From the IMG/VR virus record IMGVR_UViG_2737471835_000007: a stretch of 47,347 nt of DNA; one strand, given 5' to 3'. Made by a program: the position numbers and the translations under genes. This document shows positions 9,077 to 47,347 of the stretch, piece by piece (positions within the stretch are counted from its first letter, which is position 1; the number at the start of each line of letters is the position of its first letter). The notes under the pieces are model-generated. The model made no database searches. It worked only from the letters and a program-made list of their open reading frames with translations, and was not told the origin of the DNA. The DNA is from a virus. Taxonomy: Duplodnaviria > Heunggongvirae > Uroviricota > Caudoviricetes.

Positions 9077-9790
9077 TTAACCAGGATTTGGTTTCTTCGA
9101 CGTAATCGTGCTGCTGCCGCTTTGAACACCAGTCACATCGTGGCTGTGGCCGCTGACGCTCACGCCGTTGATAACTGCATCCATCTCGACATTAAGAGGA
9201 CCAATCAGCGAAGCGGTTGTATCCTTCATCTGGGCTTTGTCCTGGACGATCGGTCCATTGAGGTGAATTTTCCCGTTCAGGAAAATATCTTCGGCCTCGA
9301 GGTAAACAGCTTTCGACTTTTGCCTGATTTCTTCCAGAGCCACCATTACCGAGCTACTGCCGTCCTCTGTTTTGAGGATCGCGCCATCCGGACCGTACAA
9401 AACGATTTTTTGCGGATCTTCGTCGGACCACTCCTTGTTTGCCAATGGCACGAAAAACAGGGGAGTGAGCGACATCGAGTAAGAAAGCGTTGCCATACCG
9501 GTTCCCAATCCGGACACACCGCGCAGTGATACATCAGCGGCAATTGTTACTCCTCGATCGCCCGGCTGTATCGGGTAACGGATATACGGGAATGTGGCGA
9601 CAGGGATTGTTATCTGCGGGAAGTTGATCCCCTCCGGCAGCATATCAAACTGAACTGTCACTATTTGCCCGCAGATATCGACAACATGGCAGGGCAATTC
9701 GCGGCCTTTAAGCTCGGCTTGCTGGTTACCAGAACTGGTCATCATCTCCGACAGTGTTCGGAGAAACGGTAATTTTTGAGCGTTTGACAT
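9077..9790 (-). CDS. baseplate central spike protein (gpV-like)
   Basis: 237 aa; C-terminal VSGHSHDVTG HxH-type motif as in spike apex domains; position after hub-like gene. Confidence 0.55.
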   Translation of the reverse strand: MSNAQKLPFLRTLSEMMTSSGNQQAELKGRELPCHVVDICGQIVTVQFDMLPEGINFPQITIPVATFPYIRYPIQPGDRGVTIAADVSLRGVSGLGTGMATLSYSMSLTPLFFVPLANKEWSDEDPQKIVLYGPDGAILKTEDGSSSVMVALEEIRQKSKAVYLEAEDIFLNGKIHLNGPIVQDKAQMKDTTASLIGPLNVEMDAVINGVSVSGHSHDVTGVQSGSSTITSKKPNPG

Positions 9791-10797
9791 TACACCCTCG
9801 CCCAGTTCTCAGCATATGCCTCAAATACCGTCACCCAGGCATCGCCATCGGCTGTCAGATACGAACCAATGTGTCTGACTGATTTCACAAGAAATTTCCC
9901 GGTGAACGTGGTCGAATTTTTTGCGATAACGCTGGGTACCGTTGTATTAGCCATCACAATCGACGCAGCGCCAGAATATAGCCCCTCCGGCAGTTTAACC
10001 ACATCACCACATCTGATATCGCCTCTCATAGGGCATTTGAAACTGACGGTAAACGGCGCTATCCATGTCGGCTGCCCGACCAGTTCATGGGCATGAATTG
10101 TTTTTGGCTCACCCCACTTTGCCGATGCGTTATCGTAGATTCGTATTCTGTCGGAAAGAATACTGATGGCGATTCCGCTATACCTTTCATTACGCATCAT
10201 CGCAATAGAGGCGTTTTTTACGACCATAGCCAGCGAACCAATCTCCGTATATTTGCCCGTCCACGGCTCTGGCAAAACCAGGTTGTCGCTGACTGTGCAA
10301 TCAATAAGTTTATTGGGATATGCTTTTTGCAAAGCGCGGACTAAAACATCGCCCACCCTTTCCCCTGCTTCCCCCTGCCCCTCAATTGAAAAAGGTTTAC
10401 CGTCATCGGTTTTGCGTATGCTTGGATTTATTACCAGGTTTAAAGTCTGGTTCGTGCCGATCCAGTTGGCATAGGCCAGATAAATTTCACCATAGATTAC
10501 CTCCCCCTGTTGATCCTTATTTGCCAGTGGTAACCCCTGAACAAAGCCTGCTTTCATACGTACCAGACAACCCTGCAAACTTACGCTTTGCTTCAGCATG
10601 TCAATTGGTAATCCATAGATCGTCAGCATCGTACCCGAACAGACTACATCCAGGCCGGTTACTTCAAAGTCAAATTCAACATGCAACCCACATCCTGGTG
10701 TTTCATTGGTATCAAAAGGTCCAATGGGTTTTCCATTGCTATCCACTGGCGGCTTGCCTGTTTTAGGATTAATAATTTCCAGTCGGTAATAACGCAT
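9790..10797 (-). CDS. putative baseplate hub / tail protein
   Basis: 335-aa ORF in tail operon; start overlaps upstream stop. Confidence 0.5.
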   Translation of the reverse strand: MRYYRLEIINPKTGKPPVDSNGKPIGPFDTNETPGCGLHVEFDFEVTGLDVVCSGTMLTIYGLPIDMLKQSVSLQGCLVRMKAGFVQGLPLANKDQQGEVIYGEIYLAYANWIGTNQTLNLVINPSIRKTDDGKPFSIEGQGEAGERVGDVLVRALQKAYPNKLIDCTVSDNLVLPEPWTGKYTEIGSLAMVVKNASIAMMRNERYSGIAISILSDRIRIYDNASAKWGEPKTIHAHELVGQPTWIAPFTVSFKCPMRGDIRCGDVVKLPEGLYSGAASIVMANTTVPSVIAKNSTTFTGKFLVKSVRHIGSYLTADGDAWVTVFEAYAENWARV

Positions 10798-11063
10798 TAC
10801 GAAACCTCAAACTGATTCGTACTTTCGCGAAAAACAAGTTTCCCCGGAGAGCAAGGCAGCGCCAGATTGATGTCGTAACTGTCAGGTGACGCGATCAAAG
10901 GCATGTATACAATCACGTCGCCTGAACTGTCTTTCAGTTCCAGGTAGTAACGATTTGCATACAGATTAAACGGAACGCGGGCGAATGTTTCATATTCTCC
11001 GATTCTGGCAGTGAACTGAAATGGTCCTCGCCCGTCAGGTTTGAAAGGAATTAACGTTGTCAT
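10797..11063 (-). CDS. small tail protein
   Basis: 88-aa ORF translationally coupled within tail operon. Confidence 0.45.
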   Translation of the reverse strand: MTTLIPFKPDGRGPFQFTARIGEYETFARVPFNLYANRYYLELKDSSGDVIVYMPLIASPDSYDINLALPCSPGKLVFRESTNQFEVS

Positions 11064-11728
11064 AAGCCAAAACCAAACTCCTGCACGACCTGGTTCTTAA
11101 TACCTGACCACGATAGCGCCCCGTCTGACGGCATCCCTTTATCAAATTTATCCAGAACGCTCGCCAGCGTTTTTACCGTTTGTTCGACAGACGACAATGG
11201 TTGCTCAAACTCAATCTGCCAGGTGTGCTGAACCTGCTTGTTCTGCTCAGAGAAACCGGATGTATCGATAAACGACCGCATCAGACAGCGCGTGTAGATG
11301 AAAGATGGCGTCATTACGGTGTAACAACCGCCATACTGGTTATGCATATCGAGCGCCATTTTCAGCGCCGTGAATGTCATCCCCTTAGTGATGTAGCCAC
11401 CGTCCTCCGTTGATGCCGGACGGATCATCTGCATGACTACCCGGTTAGGCTTCTTGACGGTCGCATTCGCTGCCGTTACCTGGTTATAGAAATTCAGGTT
11501 GCAAATATCCTGCTGAACCAACGTTGTCCCCGCCATCGGGGTAAATGCCGCCATCGAGCGTGTACGAATCTCGCCATGCAGCAGACCGTTCACAATGCTT
11601 AGGCCTTCGGTCAAAACAGCAATCGGCATCACCCCGCCGGGAATTTTCGACGCTATGCCATCAACTAAAAGAATGGGCGATACTTCAAACGCCAGTTTGA
11701 AAGCTTGTCCAAAGTAATTAAGTGACAT
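11060..11728 (-). CDS. tail protein (post-tape-measure)
   Basis: 222-aa ORF immediately downstream of tape measure. Confidence 0.5.
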   Translation of the reverse strand: MSLNYFGQAFKLAFEVSPILLVDGIASKIPGGVMPIAVLTEGLSIVNGLLHGEIRTRSMAAFTPMAGTTLVQQDICNLNFYNQVTAANATVKKPNRVVMQMIRPASTEDGGYITKGMTFTALKMALDMHNQYGGCYTVMTPSFIYTRCLMRSFIDTSGFSEQNKQVQHTWQIEFEQPLSSVEQTVKTLASVLDKFDKGMPSDGALSWSGIKNQVVQEFGFGL

Positions 11729-21589: not shown

Positions 21590-22403
21590 GTTTGCCCTTC
21601 TCCGTTAAAAATTCGTCGGGTAGTTTCTGAGGGGCGTAGATCGGCAGAGCATCGCAACTGCAATAAACCTCCTCCCCGGCAGCAGTGATTTCGTCATAAA
21701 AACCATATACGGGCTTAATAAGCCCCTGCTCCAGCGCCCACGAATCGCGGAGGAGATAAATTTTCTCGTCGCGCTCTTTGTGGTCCTGTCGGTATTTGTA
21801 GCCCGGACGCCGCCAGTTAGAATGCCAGCGCAGAGCAATCGCACCACTCTGAACAGCCAGCAGATACTTAACGTTGCTCGCCAGCTTATGTCCCTGGTCA
21901 ATTGCCACCCGGCGACTGATAAAATCCATATCCTTCACGGACTTCTGAAAACCGGACTTCACTTCCCGGCGATCAATTTCGCTCACCCCGTCAGGCGGAA
22001 TGGACGTAACCCATCCCTGAAAACGCTGTATGGTTTTCTCGATAGCCTGTTCGCGGTTGAGTTTTATCAGGTTGGCACTGGCGAAAATTCGCCTGTCGAG
22101 TTCCTTGCGAAACTCAGGTTTCAGTTTTTCAACAGTGATTTTTTTAGGGCCGTCAGGAGGCTGATCCCGTAATGCCCCGCCGTCGATGACAAGACGGCTG
22201 TAGATAGCGGTGAGATGTTTTCTGGCTACGGTATCATCAGGGGTTTCTCGCTGAGCGGCTACACGGAGTTTCCGGCACCATTCGAGCAATGATTTTTCGC
22301 TATCCCACCCGTGATTTACGTAGTAGTTAACGGCATCCGTCAGAACCTCATACAGCGTCCTGATCCGTTTCTTCTTCCTCCCCGCCCGGCTGGAAATTGC
22401 CAT
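21570..22403 (-). CDS. head morphogenesis / minor head protein
   Basis: ORF following portal; start set at MAISSRAG with AGGAG ribosome-binding site; overlaps portal 3' end. Confidence 0.5.
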   Translation of the reverse strand: MAISSRAGRKKKRIRTLYEVLTDAVNYYVNHGWDSEKSLLEWCRKLRVAAQRETPDDTVARKHLTAIYSRLVIDGGALRDQPPDGPKKITVEKLKPEFRKELDRRIFASANLIKLNREQAIEKTIQRFQGWVTSIPPDGVSEIDRREVKSGFQKSVKDMDFISRRVAIDQGHKLASNVKYLLAVQSGAIALRWHSNWRRPGYKYRQDHKERDEKIYLLRDSWALEQGLIKPVYGFYDEITAAGEEVYCSCDALPIYAPQKLPDEFLTEKGKREFNRA

Positions 22404-23787
22404 CAGGCGTCTCCTGCTTCGGTGGTTCATAATTCGCCAGGGCGTCCACATCAATGATGAGTGGAGCTTCGCCATAGGTCTGCGTGGCATTAACAAGGCT
22501 TGCCAGCCATTCAGTGACGGCGGCACGGTTTTCAGGATCAACCTGTAGCGACACGGCAGAGAAAAGTGCTATCGCCTGTTGAATCACTTTACTGTCGCTT
22601 TCCCGGCGTTTGTCCGGCGACTCCTCCACCAGCTCCTGCCACGTCGCGGTAAACTCGCGCCGCCACTGGTAAAACGTGGTTTTATAGTCCTCGGTTATGA
22701 TGTCCGGGTAATCATTTTTCAGCGACTGATAAAATTCCTCGTTCCAGGCGATGTACTGCACCAGGCGTTCGAAATAATCCATCACAGGTTCAATCTGCTG
22801 GCGTACACCATCGATATACTGGCTGATGGCTTTCGAGTCCTCGGTTCCTTCACCGAAACCATTCGAGAAAGCCTCCTCCTTGATGAGAATCGCGGGAACA
22901 TCGCTACCTGATGCAATATCGGAAATAATGTTGTCGCGGGCGGCATTTAGCGCGCCATCGATGTTTTGTAAATTCAGCGAGGTAACGTCCTCATCCTTCC
23001 CGATACTAAGCACACCTTTATTTTTTGCCTCTTTGACATTTTCCCTTTTTCGTCCCGTGGCGGCAGCCATGATCCCGTCAAGTTTCGAACCATACTGCAC
23101 AACTTTAGCCACCAGCACGCCAGCCTTCTGGCTGACGAGATCATTCGCCTCCATCGTATTGATATAGGATTTCAGGGAATAAAGAACGCGCTGAAACACG
23201 CTTCGCCCGGTGAATCCGAACGATGAACTCTGAAACTCCAGATAAATCGGTGTGCCATTGAAAATTTTCAGTGTGCGTGACGGATGCCAGTCTTTTCCGC
23301 CAATCTTCAGCTTTTTATTGGCTTCCTGGAAAAACGGGCTGTTTGGGTTCTGGTCAGTCACCATCGAACCAGAAGCGTTCAACGGGTCCCACGCGTTGAT
23401 ATACACATCATCTTCTGTCAGTCCGAATGTCGGAAGCGGCTCACGACATGGAACACTGTCGGTGCCCACGCCGATCGCTGCGGCACCGTAGCAACGAGAC
23501 AGAAAAAACAGATTTTTAATCTTCTCGTTAACCTTCATACGTTCCCATACCTCCTGGAAACGCCGCACAACCCGCTCGTCAGGGTCTGTCTCCACGTTGT
23601 ACTGACGCGGCTTACACATCGCCATAAGTATGGGTTTTTCGACAAGTTTTCCGCCCAGAGGATGGAATTGCCACAGCTGCTTACACAATTCATAGCCAAT
23701 GTCGGTTCCCGGCTGAATTTCTTCAGCCTCAAGAATATGCATCAGTGCTGAACCGAGGCCGCCAGTAATCTCGATCTCTGCCATCAA
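22348..23787 (-). CDS. portal protein
   Basis: 479 aa directly after terminase large subunit, acidic C-terminus. Confidence 0.75.
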   Translation of the reverse strand: MMAEIEITGGLGSALMHILEAEEIQPGTDIGYELCKQLWQFHPLGGKLVEKPILMAMCKPRQYNVETDPDERVVRRFQEVWERMKVNEKIKNLFFLSRCYGAAAIGVGTDSVPCREPLPTFGLTEDDVYINAWDPLNASGSMVTDQNPNSPFFQEANKKLKIGGKDWHPSRTLKIFNGTPIYLEFQSSSFGFTGRSVFQRVLYSLKSYINTMEANDLVSQKAGVLVAKVVQYGSKLDGIMAAATGRKRENVKEAKNKGVLSIGKDEDVTSLNLQNIDGALNAARDNIISDIASGSDVPAILIKEEAFSNGFGEGTEDSKAISQYIDGVRQQIEPVMDYFERLVQYIAWNEEFYQSLKNDYPDIITEDYKTTFYQWRREFTATWQELVEESPDKRRESDSKVIQQAIALFSAVSLQVDPENRAAVTEWLASLVNATQTYGEAPLIIDVDALANYEPPKQETPDGNFQPGGEEEETDQDAV

Positions 23788-31921: not shown

Positions 31922-32520
31922 TACGCAAACTCCAGTAGCTGCGCGGCCACATTTTCGACTTGTTCCGGAGAGGAAAATTTACGGAACAGAATCCAGTTCC
32001 ACAGCACATTCAGTACAGATTTATAAACCTGCTGAAACTCGGTTTCGTCCATATTCGCAAACGCGATGGATTTCGCCCGACGCCCACGACTACCGTCCGG
32101 ATAAATATGCTCGGTGTAAAATCCGGCCTGAATGGTTACCCACTCGCGGAAAGCCTCAAACGACTTTAGCAATGCCGTATCACGGGTTCTGTGTGTCGCA
32201 ACTGTATTCAGATATTGCTCTGCGGCTTCGCTCAGAGCTGGCGTATGTTCCCGGCCTACTGATTCACACAGGTAATCAACGAAACCGGACACCAGTTTTC
32301 GTTCGCGAGGCGTGATCGCCCCACCGACCGGAGTCCAGTAATCGAAACCCAGTTGCAGGAGTTTGAAAAAACGCTTGTGGAATGCGTAGTTACGCACACG
32401 CTTAAAGTCTGCGTGTATCCACTCACCTATTTTGATTTGATGCAGAAAATCGCAACTCTCCGGCGTCGCCGGGAGAAGTAAACCAGAAGAAGTTTGTTTG
32501 ACCAGTTGTATAAGCGCCAT
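31921..32520 (-). CDS. nin-region protein (DUF1367-like)
   Basis: 199-aa ORF upstream of the YbcO-like gene; family assignment from memory. Confidence 0.5.
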   Translation of the reverse strand: MALIQLVKQTSSGLLLPATPESCDFLHQIKIGEWIHADFKRVRNYAFHKRFFKLLQLGFDYWTPVGGAITPRERKLVSGFVDYLCESVGREHTPALSEAAEQYLNTVATHRTRDTALLKSFEAFREWVTIQAGFYTEHIYPDGSRGRRAKSIAFANMDETEFQQVYKSVLNVLWNWILFRKFSSPEQVENVAAQLLEFA

Positions 32521-32793
32521 TTCTCAATCTCTCGATGGCGCAGTGCAGCAGATGCCAGTTGTTCAGGCTGACGAATGAAGTATAAATAAACTGGCTCCAG
32601 TGTAAAGCCCCCACATTGATGGAATAAAAACCAAACAACAGATTGCTGGGATAAAAACAACGCTTATTATTAAAAGCGGTTAAACAAATTAAATTTTAAT
32701 GTTATGCAAATCTACCAGATCACCATAATATCTCATTTGAAAACCACTGAAATAACAACCCTATCAGGATTAATCATATTAAGGTGAGTAAAT

Positions 32794-32880
32794 ATGGAAA
32801 ACAACAAATCTGCACATTACGCTCCTTTTTTATCTGTAATACTTTTTGTTTTATGCTGTGCGTGGGCATTATTTTTATAA
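32794..32880 (+). CDS. small hydrophobic peptide (28 aa)
   Basis: AAGGTGAG ribosome-binding site 7 nt before ATG; MENNKSAHYAPFLSVILFVLCCAWALFL; convergent with hok. Confidence 0.35.
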   Translation: MENNKSAHYAPFLSVILFVLCCAWALFL

Positions 32881-32986
32881 AAATATTTACAGATAAAATA
32901 AACCCGCCAAAGCTGGTTAAGTGTGGGTGCGTTGAGGATGCATAATACATCAGAGGTGGCGAGGGATTTCTCCCTCGCCCGGTCTC

Positions 32987-33142
32987 TTACTCCTCAGGTT
33001 CGTAAGCTGTGAAGACAGCGACCTCCGTCTGCCCGGTTCGGATTCGTACCTCACAGAGGTCTTTCCTCGTTACCAGTGCCGTCACTATGACGGTTAAACA
33101 GATGACGATCAGGGCGATTAACATCGCCTTTTGCTGCTTCAT
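32987..33142 (-). CDS. hokD: Hok/Gef family type I toxin (HokD/RelF-like)
   Basis: 51 aa MKQQKAMLIALIVICLTVIVTALVTRKDLCEVRIRTGQTEVAVFTAYEPEE; short upstream mok-like ORF ending in CTATGA overlap. Confidence 0.85.
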   Translation of the reverse strand: MKQQKAMLIALIVICLTVIVTALVTRKDLCEVRIRTGQTEVAVFTAYEPEE

Positions 33143-33190
33143 AGCCTGCTTCTCCTTGACCTTTCGGTCCGTAAGAGGCTAATCTCTATG

Positions 33191-33260
33191 TGTCGCATAG
33201 ATATGGCCTCAGATTAATGTTAAACGTCTTGCAGGACGCGTAATGTTAACTGGGGCTTTT
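33191..33260 (+). ncRNA. putative Sok-like antisense RNA
   Basis: Plus-strand TTGACC (33156-33161) and TAATCT (33180-33185), 18-nt spacer, directing transcription antisense to the hok leader; 3' end not defined. Confidence 0.3.
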
Positions 33261-33664
33261 CTCTATCTACCTTTGGTGATCATGCCCGAGGCAGATAGCC
33301 TCAAGCACCCACAGCAATTCTAACTATCCAATACATCACTGCCAACACTTTAAACTCTTACCCTTTAAAACAAGAACAAAATTCAACCAATCAGCATTGG
33401 GCGTATACTCATATCCTAGAGAAAACAACTCTTTCTGTACTATTTATATCCATATGATTTATAAGCATTTGCCACTTGCCATAGCCGCACAATGACAGTT
33501 TGCCATTTGATGTCAATAGATAAAAATGATCGTTTTCAATGAGTTACATACTTGCAAGGCGTTGCACATCAGGCCCGATTACGTCAGTATCAAAAGATTA
33601 CAGATGGTGCATTACTGCCACCTCGCCTTAATGTTCCAGAACTCTCCAACTTGAGGAATTTTCA

Positions 33665-34438
33665 ATGACATCCTTTCAATTATCTTTGATTTCTCGTGAA
33701 ATTGACGGCGAAATAATACATTTACGTGCCAAAGATGGTTACATAAACGCCACATCAATGTGTAGAACTGCGGGCAAACTGCTCTCTGATTACACTAGAC
33801 TCAAAACTACTCAAGAGTTTTTTGACGAATTATCACGCGATATGGGAATTCCCATATCGGAGTTAATTCAATCATTTAAAGGTGGAAGACCTGAAAACCA
33901 AGGGACATGGGTGCATCCTGACATCGCTATTAATCTAGCGCAGTGGCTATCGCCCAAATTTGCAGTCCAGGTTTCAAGATGGGTTCGTGAATGGATGTCA
34001 GGGGAAAGAACTACAGCAGAAATGCCTGTACATTTAAAACGGTACATGGTTAATCGTAGTAGAATTCCTCACACGCACTTTTCTATTCTTAATGAACTGA
34101 CATTCAACTTGGTTGCACCTCTTGAACAAGCAGGGTACACACTCCCAGAAAAAATGGTTCCTGACATTTCACAAGGAAGAGTATTTTCACAATGGTTAAG
34201 AGATAATAGAAACGTAGAACCCAAAACATTCCCTACCTATGACCATGAATATCCCGATGGTCGCGTATACCCTGCAAGGCTGTACCCAAATGAATATTTA
34301 GCAGATTTCAAAGAACATTTTAACAATATTTGGTTGCCGCAATATGCCCCGAAATACTTCGCTGACCGGGACAAAAAGGCTCTCGCCTTGATTGAAAAAA
34401 TTATGCTACCTAACCTCGATGGCAATGAACAGTTCTAA
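33665..34438 (+). CDS. KilA-N domain protein
   Basis: N-terminal ...LRAKDGYINATSMCRTAGKLLSDYTRLKTTQEFFDEL...WVHPDIAINLAQWLSPKFAVQVSRWV is a KilA-N/APSES-type domain. Confidence 0.8.
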   Translation: MTSFQLSLISREIDGEIIHLRAKDGYINATSMCRTAGKLLSDYTRLKTTQEFFDELSRDMGIPISELIQSFKGGRPENQGTWVHPDIAINLAQWLSPKFAVQVSRWVREWMSGERTTAEMPVHLKRYMVNRSRIPHTHFSILNELTFNLVAPLEQAGYTLPEKMVPDISQGRVFSQWLRDNRNVEPKTFPTYDHEYPDGRVYPARLYPNEYLADFKEHFNNIWLPQYAPKYFADRDKKALALIEKIMLPNLDGNEQF

Positions 34439-45407: not shown

Positions 45408-45614
45408 ATGACAAAAACTTTGAGATATGACGATGTTAAACCATGTCCGTTTTGTGGTTGTCCATCAGTAACGGTGAAAGACATTTCAGGATATTACCGG
45501 GCAAAATGCAACGGATGCGAATCCCGAACTGGCTATGGTGGAAGTGAAAAAGAAGCGCTCGAAAGATGGAATAAACGAACCACTGAAAATATTAATGGAG
45601 GCGTTCATGTATAA
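45408..45614 (+). CDS. ralR: restriction alleviation protein Lar/RalR-like
   Basis: 68 aa from MTKTLRYDDVKPCPFCG; Cys-rich small protein directly after recT as in Rac. Confidence 0.65.
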   Translation: MTKTLRYDDVKPCPFCGCPSVTVKDISGYYRAKCNGCESRTGYGGSEKEALERWNKRTTENINGGVHV

Positions 45615-45795
45615 AATTACCGCTACAATTGAAAAGGAAGGTGGCACTCCTACTAACTGGACAAGATATTCAAAATCTAAACTAACGAAATCAGAATGCG
45701 AAAAAATGCTCTCAGGTAAAAAAGAAGCAGGCGTTTCCAGAGAGCAGAAAGTAAAACTGATAAATTTTAATTGCGAGAAACTTCAGTCCTCGTGA
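45607..45795 (+). CDS. small hypothetical protein (YdaC-like position)
   Basis: 62 aa from MYKITATIEK with GGAGG ribosome-binding site. Confidence 0.4.
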   Translation: MYKITATIEKEGGTPTNWTRYSKSKLTKSECEKMLSGKKEAGVSREQKVKLINFNCEKLQSS

Positions 45796-45894: not shown

Positions 45895-46110
45895 ATGGCA
45901 CAAGTAATCTTTAATGAAGAGTGGATGGTTGAATACGGCCTGATGCTTCGCACTGGTCTGGGGGCCAGACAAATTGAAGCATATCGCCAGAACTGTTGGG
46001 TGGAGGGCTTCCACTTCAAACGAGTATCTCCTTTAGGTAAGCCAGACAGCAAACGAGGGATTATCTGGTACAACTATCCAAAGATAAATCAGTTTATCAA
46101 AGACTCATGA
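45895..46110 (+). CDS. xisR: excisionase
   Basis: 71 aa from [21 protein letters not shown]; immediately upstream of integrase. Confidence 0.65.
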
Positions 46111-46111
46111 T

Positions 46112-47347
46112 ATGTCTAAATTACCAACAGGTGTCGAGATTAGAGGTAGAAACATTCGCATCTGGTTCATGTTTCGAGGAAAACGATGTCGGGAAACATT
46201 AAAAGGCTGGGAGATTACAAACAGTAATATTAAAAAGGCCGGAAATTTAAGAGCGCTGATAGTTCATGAAATAAACTCCGGTGAATTTGAGTATTTAAGA
46301 CGTTTTCCCCAGTCCAGCACTGGGGCAAAAATGGTGACAACGAGAGTCATAAAAACGTTCGGGGAGCTTTGTGATATCTGGACAAAAATTAAAGAGACAG
46401 AGTTAACAACAAACACAATGAAGAAAACGAAATCACAATTAAAAACACTCAGAATAATAATTTGTGAAAGTACCCCGATATCATATATTCGTTATAGCGA
46501 TATCTTAAACTACCGGAATGAACTGCTGCATGGAGAAACGCTTTACCTGGATAATCCAAGATCCAACAAAAAAGGAAGAACCGTGCGCACAGTTGATAAC
46601 TATATCGCCCTGCTCTGTTCGCTGTTACGTTTTGCGTATCAGTCGGGATTTATATCAACCAAACCATTTGAAGGAGTAAAAAAATTACAGCGAAACAGAA
46701 TAAAGCCTGACCCGTTATCTAAAACAGAATTCAATGCATTAATGGAAAGTGAAAAAGGACAGAGCCAAAACTTGTGGAAATTTGCCGTTTACTCCGGGCT
46801 TCGTCACGGGGAACTGGCAGCTCTGGCGTGGGAGGATGTGGATTTCGAGAAGGGAATTGTGAATGTCAGAAGAAACCTGACGATACTTGATATGTTCGGT
46901 CCCCCAAAAACAAATGCCGGGATCCGGACGGTAACATTACTGCAGCCTGCTCTTGAAGCACTGAAGGAGCAATACAAACTGACCGGGCATCATCGCAAAA
47001 GCGAAATCACCTTTTATCATCGGGAGTACGGCAGAACCGAAAAGCAAAAACTGCATTTTGTTTTCATGCCAAGGGTGTGTAACGGAAAACAGAAACCTTA
47101 TTACTCGGTAAGCAGTTTGGGGGCAAGGTGGAATGCAGCAGTAAAACGTGCTGGTATTCGCCGCCGTAATCCGTACCATACGCGGCATACTTTTGCCTGC
47201 TGGCTGTTGACGGCAGGAGCGAACCCGGCATTTATAGCCAGCCAAATGGGGCATGAAACTGCGCAGATGGTGTATGAAATTTACGGTATGTGGATTGATG
47301 ACATGAACGACGAACAGATAGCCATGTTGAATGCGCGGTTATCGTAG
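46112..47347 (+). CDS. intR: tyrosine integrase (Rac IntR-like)
   Basis: 411 aa; C-terminal catalytic region with ...HTRHTFACWLLTAG...GHETAQMVYEIY; terminal gene of the prophage. Confidence 0.9.
   Translation: MSKLPTGVEIRGRNIRIWFMFRGKRCRETLKGWEITNSNIKKAGNLRALIVHEINSGEFEYLRRFPQSSTGAKMVTTRVIKTFGELCDIWTKIKETELTTNTMKKTKSQLKTLRIIICESTPISYIRYSDILNYRNELLHGETLYLDNPRSNKKGRTVRTVDNYIALLCSLLRFAYQSGFISTKPFEGVKKLQRNRIKPDPLSKTEFNALMESEKGQSQNLWKFAVYSGLRHGELAALAWEDVDFEKGIVNVRRNLTILDMFGPPKTNAGIRTVTLLQPALEALKEQYKLTGHHRKSEITFYHREYGRTEKQKLHFVFMPRVCNGKQKPYYSVSSLGARWNAAVKRAGIRRRNPYHTRHTFACWLLTAGANPAFIASQMGHETAQMVYEIYGMWIDDMNDEQIAMLNARLS

Follow-up and report, generated by a model that had tools for sequence, protein, structure and literature searches.

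The 47,347-nucleotide stretch of viral DNA analysed here (IMG/VR record IMGVR_UViG_2737471835_000007; hereafter the window) carries on its minus strand, from about 33345 to 32897, what is, with a probability of roughly 0.88, a complete canonical type I toxin-antitoxin cassette of the hok/sok family. A hok/sok-type type I locus had been proposed at this place in an earlier note made from the sequence alone, and the proposal is borne out by a Hok/Gef toxin, an Rfam match of the leader, a mok frame, an antisense promoter, tac and fbi elements, and the refolding of the predicted mRNA. The sequence elements, their conservation, the covariation and the in-silico refolding are what the analysis itself demonstrates. 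The hok/sok family has already been thoroughly characterised, and the window copy is an ordinary member of it, whose protein-level annotation (hokD) is already public.

The toxin gene and its prophage setting

The hok coding sequence (32987..33142, minus strand) comprises 51 codons plus a stop, and is preceded by the Shine-Dalgarno (SD) sequence AGGAG (33152..33156, minus strand, read from the sequence). Its product covers the full 42-position profile of PF01848 (HOK_GEF) with a score of 82.9 bits against a cutoff of 22, is identical to HokD/RelF of E. coli K-12, and is named hokD by RefSeq in E. coli A17, confirming the 51-aa Hok/Gef toxin that had been read at this position. RefSeq labels only the hok coding sequence at this locus; mok, Sok and the mRNA elements carry no annotation. 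Codon 47 of the window hok is Tyr (UAC-GAA). Toxicity of the HokD coding sequence has been reported. For the homologous hokW-sokW system of the Stx2 phage 933W and the Sakai prophage Sp5, both the toxicity of HokW and its neutralisation by sokW have been shown experimentally (PMC8621323).

Positions 32700-33700 of the window are 100% identical to E. coli A17, in whose annotated record the host element is a full-length Rac-type lambdoid prophage integrated at ttcA. From high to low window coordinates, the A17 gene order is intR, xisR, ralR, recT, a recE pseudogene, kilR, racR, ydaS/ydaT, replication protein P, DUF1627, DUF977 and KilA-N; on the low-coordinate side of hokD, A17 has DUF1367, DUF1364/YbcO, a Q-like DUF1133 protein, lysis genes and terminase. 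Pfam agrees with the A17 annotation of the hok neighbours. In this Rac-type prophage the hok gene therefore falls into the interval from replication protein P to the Q-like antiterminator, in keeping with the proposed placement in the nin region.

What 137 related loci share with the window almost always extends between about 33322 and about 32900, with flanks that vary. Since homology stops sharply at these two points and the flanks differ between phages, the hok/sok unit is a discrete cassette of about 420 bp. The high-coordinate edge of the conserved cassette falls between the -35 and -10 hexamers of the hok promoter, so that the -35 hexamer sits in the variable flank, just outside the cassette. 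The left boundary given in the earlier note, 32794, is too far out, as the cassette stops near 32897; an unrelated 28-aa ORF (32794..32880) has its ATG there, comes with its own SD, lies in an AT-rich segment and has no Pfam match. This ORF was considered as a part of the hok locus or as a second toxin, and was rejected as such, being kept together with its SD in phages without a nearby hok. The idea that 32521-32900 is strain-specific DNA was likewise rejected: it is present in 1161 complete E. coli genomes, among which the AT-rich segment with the 28-aa ORF is usually not beside hok, and only its direct adjacency to hok is rare.

The hok mRNA and its predicted refolding

A promoter scan identified a hok promoter TTGGCA-17-TAGAAT on the minus strand (-35 at 33340..33345, -10 at 33317..33322) with 10 of 12 consensus matches, and transcription is predicted to start near 33310. 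From E. coli through to Photorhabdus and Erwinia, a -10 hexamer of the TAnnnT type is kept at this place. The predicted full-length hok mRNA of about 414 nt (32897..33310, minus strand) is based on the position of the -10 hexamer, the start of an Rfam match and the conserved GGGYGCUUGAG; 33310 is also the exact starting point of the Rfam match and of the conserved GGGYGCUUGAGRCU. The match is to RF01794 (33140-33310, minus strand; 101 bits with a gathering score of 59; E = 7.5e-22; model positions 1-157 of 157), and a permissive Rfam scan of 32500-33700 gave nothing beyond it, the remaining matches being far under their gathering scores. RF01794 is named 'sok', and its match was considered as evidence for the antisense RNA itself. 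This was rejected, because the match lies on the hok-sense strand and ends at the hok AUG, indicating that the family models the hok mRNA leader and not Sok. Of the covariance-model search for Sok and for the fold-back elements of the hok mRNA, which the earlier note had put forward as a check, the outcome is thus a match of the hok leader and not of Sok. The 3' end of the mRNA is uncertain, because the putative terminator, aligned with relatives as a hairpin CCAGC-UUUG-GCGGG followed by a U tract (32903..32916, minus strand), differs from the relatives' consensus CCCGC-UUCG-GCGGG-UUUUU by a C-to-A change that creates an A.G mismatch, and a terminator scan made no call at this hairpin.

The predicted 414-nt transcript (33310-32897) has a fold z-score of -6.06. 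Its full-length minimum-free-energy fold is closed by a long-range helix between the 5'-terminal tac element GGGUGCUUGAG (33300..33310, minus strand) and the fbi element CUCAACGCACCC (32925..32936, minus strand). Within the fold, the ucb or anti-SD box AGCCCC (33252..33257, minus strand) is bound to the region of the mok SD. The hok start region, AGGCU-AUGAAGCAGC (33148-33134, from about 5 nt upstream of the AUG), is buried in helix 8, the other strand of which comes from the 3' portion of the coding sequence of hok; the hok SD is situated just upstream of helix 8 and is weakly paired in the folds. A 3' stem-loop GGCGAGGGAGAAAUCCCUCGCC (32958..32979, minus strand) is present in both the full-length and the truncated fold and, by analogy with the R1 data in PMC9841398, would be expected to form the 3' terminus of the mRNA in its processed, active state.

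When the transcript is truncated at its 3' end (33310..32950), a stem between tac and AGCCCC forms, and the mok SD moves to a weak pairing with the dcb box GCCUC (33175..33179, minus strand), which lies within the invariant AGCCUCUUAC. The pairing of dcb with the mok SD is found in the minimum-free-energy fold of the truncated mRNA and is absent from the centroid, and is for this reason regarded as weak. Refolding of tac onto the anti-SD box after 3' truncation is the model described for plasmid R1 (PMC9841398), and the refolding predicted in silico for the truncated window mRNA follows it.

The fold was projected on an alignment of 79 non-redundant relatives, whose range extends from phages of E. 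coli as far as Kluyvera, Photorhabdus and Erwinia, with two kinds of controls, namely partners slid by 1-3 columns and 500 shuffles. In the 79 relatives 90.1% of cells were paired, compared to 38-43% in the slid controls, and 48 pairs had changed on both sides, compared to 19-31; none of the 500 shuffles reached the observed covariation values. Helix 1 (tac/fbi) is 94.5% paired, with a compensatory U-A to C-G exchange in 11 sequences (78 distinct sequences), helix 8 is 94.4% paired across relatives, and helices 15 and 16, which form the 3' stem-loop, are 98% paired with five pairs changed on both sides.

Sok, mok and comparison with known hok loci

A promoter TTGACC-18-TAATCT, antisense to the hok leader, had been pointed out as a possible source of a Sok-like RNA. 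It is present on the plus strand (-35 at 33156..33161, -10 at 33180..33185) and is conserved, together with the mok SD and the mok ATG, in 109 unique leader-bearing loci; all 109 have TTGACC or TTGCCT as the -35, and 85 have TAAYCT as the -10, the others carrying related hexamers. A generic sigma-70 promoter scan did not call it, as the -10 hexamer matches the consensus at 3 of 6 positions; it was nevertheless judged to be more than a coincidence and was retained on account of its conservation and the annotation of the homologue, and not of its consensus score. The annotated 5' end of sokW in 933W corresponds to window position 33192, 7 nt past the -10 hexamer, and in the hokW-sokW system a mutation of the sokW -10 abolished protection against HokW (PMC8621323).

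With coordinates transferred from the annotated sokW, a Sok-like antisense RNA of 69 nt (33192..33260, plus strand) is predicted at the level of sequence. It is antisense to nt 51-119 of the hok mRNA, which include the mok SD and AUG. Its predicted fold (-26 kcal/mol, z = -4.2) consists of a 13-nt unpaired 5' tail, a long hairpin and a terminal UUUU; the tail is complementary to the mok AUG, and the 5' arm of the hairpin covers the mok SD.

The only ORF with an SD in the hok leader of the window, as judged from three-frame translation, is a minimal mok, i.e. the 19-codon upstream ORF (uORF) MRHIEISLLRTERSRRSRL (33139..33198, minus strand). Its ATG at 33198 is aligned with the annotated starts of mokW (933W) and of mok in Rac-SA53, and lies 8 nt downstream of the SD sequence GAGG (33207..33210, minus strand), which is invariant in the 79-sequence alignment. 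Its stop codon UGA (33141-33139) overlaps the hok AUG by 4 nt (AUGA). What had been described as a short mok-like overlapping frame is hence correct as to a short frame with its own SD, but the overlap with hok amounts to just these 4 nt and is not extensive. None of the three translated frames contains a long mok that overlaps hok in the manner of R1 or 933W; the +1 frame has no start codon, and an in-frame extension is blocked by a TAG at 33181-33179. Compared to 933W, the window has a 2-nt deletion right after ATGC and a 1-nt insertion farther on. Owing to the 2-nt deletion, both the Sok 5' tail and the loop of the hairpin targeted by Sok are shorter than in 933W.

The reading of mok varies among the 137 related loci. 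It is in frame with hok in 100 loci, an AUGA-coupled 19-codon uORF in 17, a long out-of-frame (+1) overlap in 9, and in frame but stopping early in 1; another 9 loci, including the K-12-type truncated ones, have no SD-ATG upstream, and a single locus in which the hok start is not ATG was left unclassified. The 17 uORF loci form three groups with unrelated peptides, i.e. a window-type clade of hokD/W phages, chromosomal loci of E. ruysiae and E. whittamii, and loci of Erwinia and Kalamiella. The exact 68-nt mok-hok junction of the window occurs in at least 120 viral contigs, and the short mok is therefore neither a sequencing error nor a private lesion. A large survey of Hok proteins skipped mok, as its frame is hard to call (bioRxiv 10.1101/2025.08.07.668861), so that the present tally is a small addition to it.

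In R1, mok has to be translated as far as the hok start region but can be dispensed with beyond it, and 19 mok codons precede the hok AUG (PMC9841398), the same number as in the window. The short mok of the window fits the finding that translation to the hok start suffices, and from the layout of SD, ATG and AUGA a translational coupling of mok to hok would be predicted. A further suggestion is that the AUGA-ending uORF is not a neutral frameshift but a distinct and selected form of termination-reinitiation coupling that avoids a Mok-Hok fusion; we consider this improbable, at about one chance in five.

The closest characterised relative is hokW-sokW, with about 90% nucleotide identity to the window over the whole cassette. 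Each of mokW, hokW and sokW, as annotated in 933W, has its counterpart among the window elements, and the two loci, both phage-borne, share the promoter, tac, the anti-SD box, the mok SD and ATG, the Sok promoter, the Sok hairpin and fbi. They differ in the C-terminus of Hok (VDYESEK versus TAYEPEE in the window-hokW comparison), and in mok, as mokW is a 70-codon N-terminal extension in frame with hokW whereas the window has the 19-codon uORF ending in AUGA. In addition, the 933W locus is located outside the nin region, close to the right end of the genome, whereas the window locus lies within that region.

Two Rac-type phages, Rac-SA53 (KU052037) and phage Rac (MN652886), contain mok/hok with 91-92% identity to the window and in the same slot, in which hok is followed by DUF1367 (irsA), ybcO and Q. 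In both, rem lies between hok and DUF1367, whereas the window has the AT-rich segment with the 28-aa ORF at that position. Their mok genes differ from the minimal uORF of the window and from each other: Rac-SA53, like 933W, has a 70-codon product in frame with hok, and phage Rac (the 442/2 copy) a long +1 frame of 68 codons.

The hokD (relF) gene of the cryptic prophage Qin of E. coli K-12 encodes a Hok protein identical to that of the window, and its coding sequence, fbi and terminator are 96% identical; both genes are found in lambdoid prophages or their remnants, upstream of a Q-like region. The K-12 locus is homologous to the window only up to a point some 15 nt upstream of the ATG; beyond it, relB-relE take the place of the promoter, tac, mok and sok, which implies that K-12 hokD is without antisense control and that the window represents the intact ancestral form of this locus. 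The K-12-type arrangement, with relB-relE directly upstream of hok, was not encountered in the window, which has a full leader and KilA-N upstream. As this leader is retained, the RefSeq name 'hokD' suits the protein only, and not the organisation of the locus.

With hok/sok of R1, the window shares the tac/fbi lock, the ucb anti-SD box, dcb and, as predicted, the coupling of mok to hok and a Sok directed against the mok start (PMC9841398). The Hok protein of R1 is about 44% identical to this Hok lineage, a value determined for HokW (PMC8621323). The R1 system is plasmid-borne, with proven post-segregational killing and a 70-codon overlapping mok, whereas the window system is prophage-borne with a minimal mok.

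Proposed mechanism and role

Transcription, processing, RNA half-lives and toxicity of the window cassette are expected by analogy with R1 hok/sok and hokW-sokW, leading to the following model. Transcription from the minus-strand promoter (33345-33317) would yield the hok mRNA of about 414 nt, which in its full-length form would be inert, with tac locked to fbi, the mok SD held by the anti-SD box and the hok start region enclosed in a helix. Slow trimming of the 3' end would remove fbi, upon which tac would capture the anti-SD box and the mok SD would be freed. Ribosomes translating the 19 codons of mok would then unwind the hok start region and stop at the UGA over the hok AUG, allowing reinitiation on hok. 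As long as the constitutive, short-lived Sok of about 69 nt is made, it would pair with the region of the mok SD and AUG and block translation of mok, and hence of hok, and the duplex of Sok and hok mRNA would be marked for RNase III. Once Sok synthesis ends, the stable mRNA pool would be translated, and Hok would enter the inner membrane and cause death or lysis.

Most likely, such a circuit would serve to release Hok upon prophage induction, helping lysis and phage release, as proposed by analogy with hokW-sokW of Sp5. In that system sokW is gone after treatment with mitomycin C, HokW appears in a RecA-dependent manner and reaches the inner membrane, and deletion of hokW-sokW halves phage release (PMC8621323); what was demonstrated there is thus help in lysis, and not the addiction or phage exclusion that the earlier note had named. 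The phage from which this role is carried over (Sp5/933W) is a different one, and its homologous locus is sited elsewhere in the genome. The circuit could in addition act against cells that lose the prophage, or make infection abortive when a phage turns off the transcription of the host.

That prophage addiction is the main role, with Sok being lost first and residual stable mRNA yielding Hok in cells cured of the prophage, is to our minds doubtful, although of the alternatives it is the one to be taken most seriously. Post-segregational killing is the canonical function of hok/sok on plasmid R1 (PMC9841398), the architecture of a stable mRNA with a labile antisense RNA appears from the sequence to be fully present in the window, and the annotators of 933W called the homologue 'prophage maintenance'. 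Yet no prophage hok is known from experiment to act in this way, the sole study of a prophage copy found assistance to lysis on induction (PMC8621323), and the prophage of the window already has the toxin modules ralR/RalA and ydaS/ydaT. Somewhat less probable is a main role in exclusion by abortive infection, in which a lytic phage would stop host transcription, Sok would decay and Hok would kill the cell early. Defence genes are common in prophages, and hok/sok of R1 on a high-copy plasmid lowered the plating efficiency of T4 by 42% and plaque size by about 85%, as cited in PMC8621323. The effect on T4 is modest, however, and was obtained with a high-copy plasmid and the R1 system rather than with a single-copy system of the hokD/hokW type; moreover, hok genes, which are enriched in prophages (23% versus 5% expected), are not enriched beside defence systems (bioRxiv 10.1101/2025.08.07.668861).

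The cassette might also be structurally intact but functionally silent, i.e. a decaying or domesticated relic like the chromosomal hok loci of K-12, from which Hok would never be released in meaningful quantity. The native chromosomal hokA, hokB and hokC have been reported to give neither post-segregational killing nor activation by rifampicin, and intact architecture is for this reason no guarantee of activity. The window mok is frameshifted relative to 933W and out of frame relative to the best-studied homologues, the terminator contains a mismatch, and full toxicity may depend on editing of the Tyr at codon 47 of Hok (UAC-GAA) to Cys by TadA. Against this, none of the regulatory elements is missing and all are conserved under covariation, which makes a silent relic less likely, and the exact short-mok allele recurs among viral contigs, at least 120 of which carry it. 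Mutagenesis of R1 showed mok beyond the hok start to be dispensable (PMC9841398), and hokW-sokW, which is 90% identical, shows activity at its native locus (PMC8621323). Finally, a truly degraded form, such as K-12 hokD with relBE replacing the leader, looks quite unlike the window. Taken with the evidence on both sides, a silent cassette is the most improbable of these readings, and we continue to favour a cassette that would release Hok on prophage induction.

Beyond correct annotation, the significance of the locus is slight. It provides an example of an intact hokD-type cassette, contrasting with the truncated relBE-hokD of K-12, and would constitute a second RNA-regulated toxin module in its Rac-type prophage, besides ralR/RalA. 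The distribution of mok forms lends support from natural variation to the view that translation need only proceed as far as the hok start, and the mok of the window, as a naturally minimal form, may be a clean model for the coupling of mok to hok. If the three mok forms differ in coupling efficiency, or in the production of an N-terminally extended Hok, they would tune toxin output.

Sequence changes in the hok transcript and the Sok pairing region

The window carries a 2-nt deletion directly after the ATGC that opens mok, the short upstream reading frame of hok. As a consequence of this deletion the predicted Sok RNA has a 5' tail of 13 nt (33192-33204, plus strand), which is 2 nt shorter than the 15 nt in the homologous locus of the Stx2 phage 933W, and the loop of the mok-AUG hairpin (33187-33201, minus strand) is cut to CGACA. 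The CUGA or CUAG loop sequence of relatives is thereby absent from the hairpin of the window. A YUNR U-turn loop is used in the recognition of Sok of plasmid R1.

The Rfam family RF01794 ("sok antitoxin", a model of 157 positions) matches the window at 33140-33310 on the minus strand, i.e. in the sense of hok, and covers the hok mRNA from its 5' end as far as the hok AUG. The reverse complement of approximately the middle of this match (hok mRNA nt 51-119) corresponds to Sok itself, and a match to the family does not tell from which of the two strands the antitoxin is transcribed.

In codon 47 of hok (Tyr47; 33002-33004, minus strand), UAC is followed by GAA, creating a UACG motif. Such a motif has been described as a site of A-to-I editing by TadA, through which the Tyr codon of hokC, hokD and hokE is read as Cys (bioRxiv 10.1101/2025.08.07.668861). 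All 79 aligned loci share the surrounding UUACGAA without variation. These bases lie directly 3' of the helix in which the start region of hok is sequestered, and in part inside it, and this conservation may therefore have a second cause besides the editing motif.

The stem of the hok terminator (32903-32916, minus strand) contains a C-to-A change (CCAGC, compared to the consensus CCCGC) that introduces an A.G mismatch, and that the window has in common with two related loci (L056 and L080). The hok transcript may read through into the AT-rich segment downstream, antisense to a 28-residue ORF; on this strand, terminator-like sites next occur at 32678-32661 and 32609-32593.

Distribution of hok cassettes and of the leaderless form

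A truncation of the K-12 type, in which homology to the window starts about 15 nt upstream of the hok ATG, was found in six loci (L037, L041, L082, L089, L091 and L126). As three of these (L037, L041 and L082) are IMG/VR viral contigs, their sequences indicate that leaderless hokD is not restricted to the Qin prophage of K-12. The presence of relBE upstream of leaderless hokD was examined in the K-12 locus only.

Cassettes with 88–93% DNA identity to that of the window, encoding Hok proteins with 96–100% identity, also occur in four unexpected database records (L100, L105, L138 and H41). These window-like cassettes are found in a 275-bp contig labelled Acinetobacter idrijaensis, a 431-bp contig labelled Xanthomonas pisi, the end of a 2995-bp contig of a "Candidatus Scatousia" MAG, and "Actinobacillus phage vB_Apl-pPE4". 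Their presence there probably reflects contamination by E. coli or coliphage DNA, or mislabelled records, rather than true host range.

Other genes of the prophage

The unannotated 28-residue ORF (32794-32880, plus strand) lies outside the hok cassette, encodes a hydrophobic peptide (MENNKSAHYAPFLSVILFVLCCAWALFL) and is preceded by a good Shine-Dalgarno sequence, AAGGTGA. Its frame, start, stop and Shine-Dalgarno sequence are all preserved in four phage records without a nearby hok, with 75–82% amino-acid identity, while the DNA around the ORF is divergent. A Pfam search gave no matches, and we propose the ORF as a candidate gene for a small membrane protein.

Among its genes for head morphogenesis, the prophage also has one that RefSeq annotates as "anti-CBASS protein Acb1 family protein" (about 22346-23782, minus strand; 9647-11083 in the database record L001).

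A full-length match to Rfam family RF02694 (218 bits, versus a gathering score of 170) identifies the RalA sRNA at 45613-45791 on the minus strand. RalA is the sRNA antitoxin to the DNase toxin RalR, and ralR is annotated at about 46083-46277 on the plus strand. Together, match and annotation indicate that the prophage carries a second predicted RNA-regulated toxin module, ralR/RalA, beside hok/sok.
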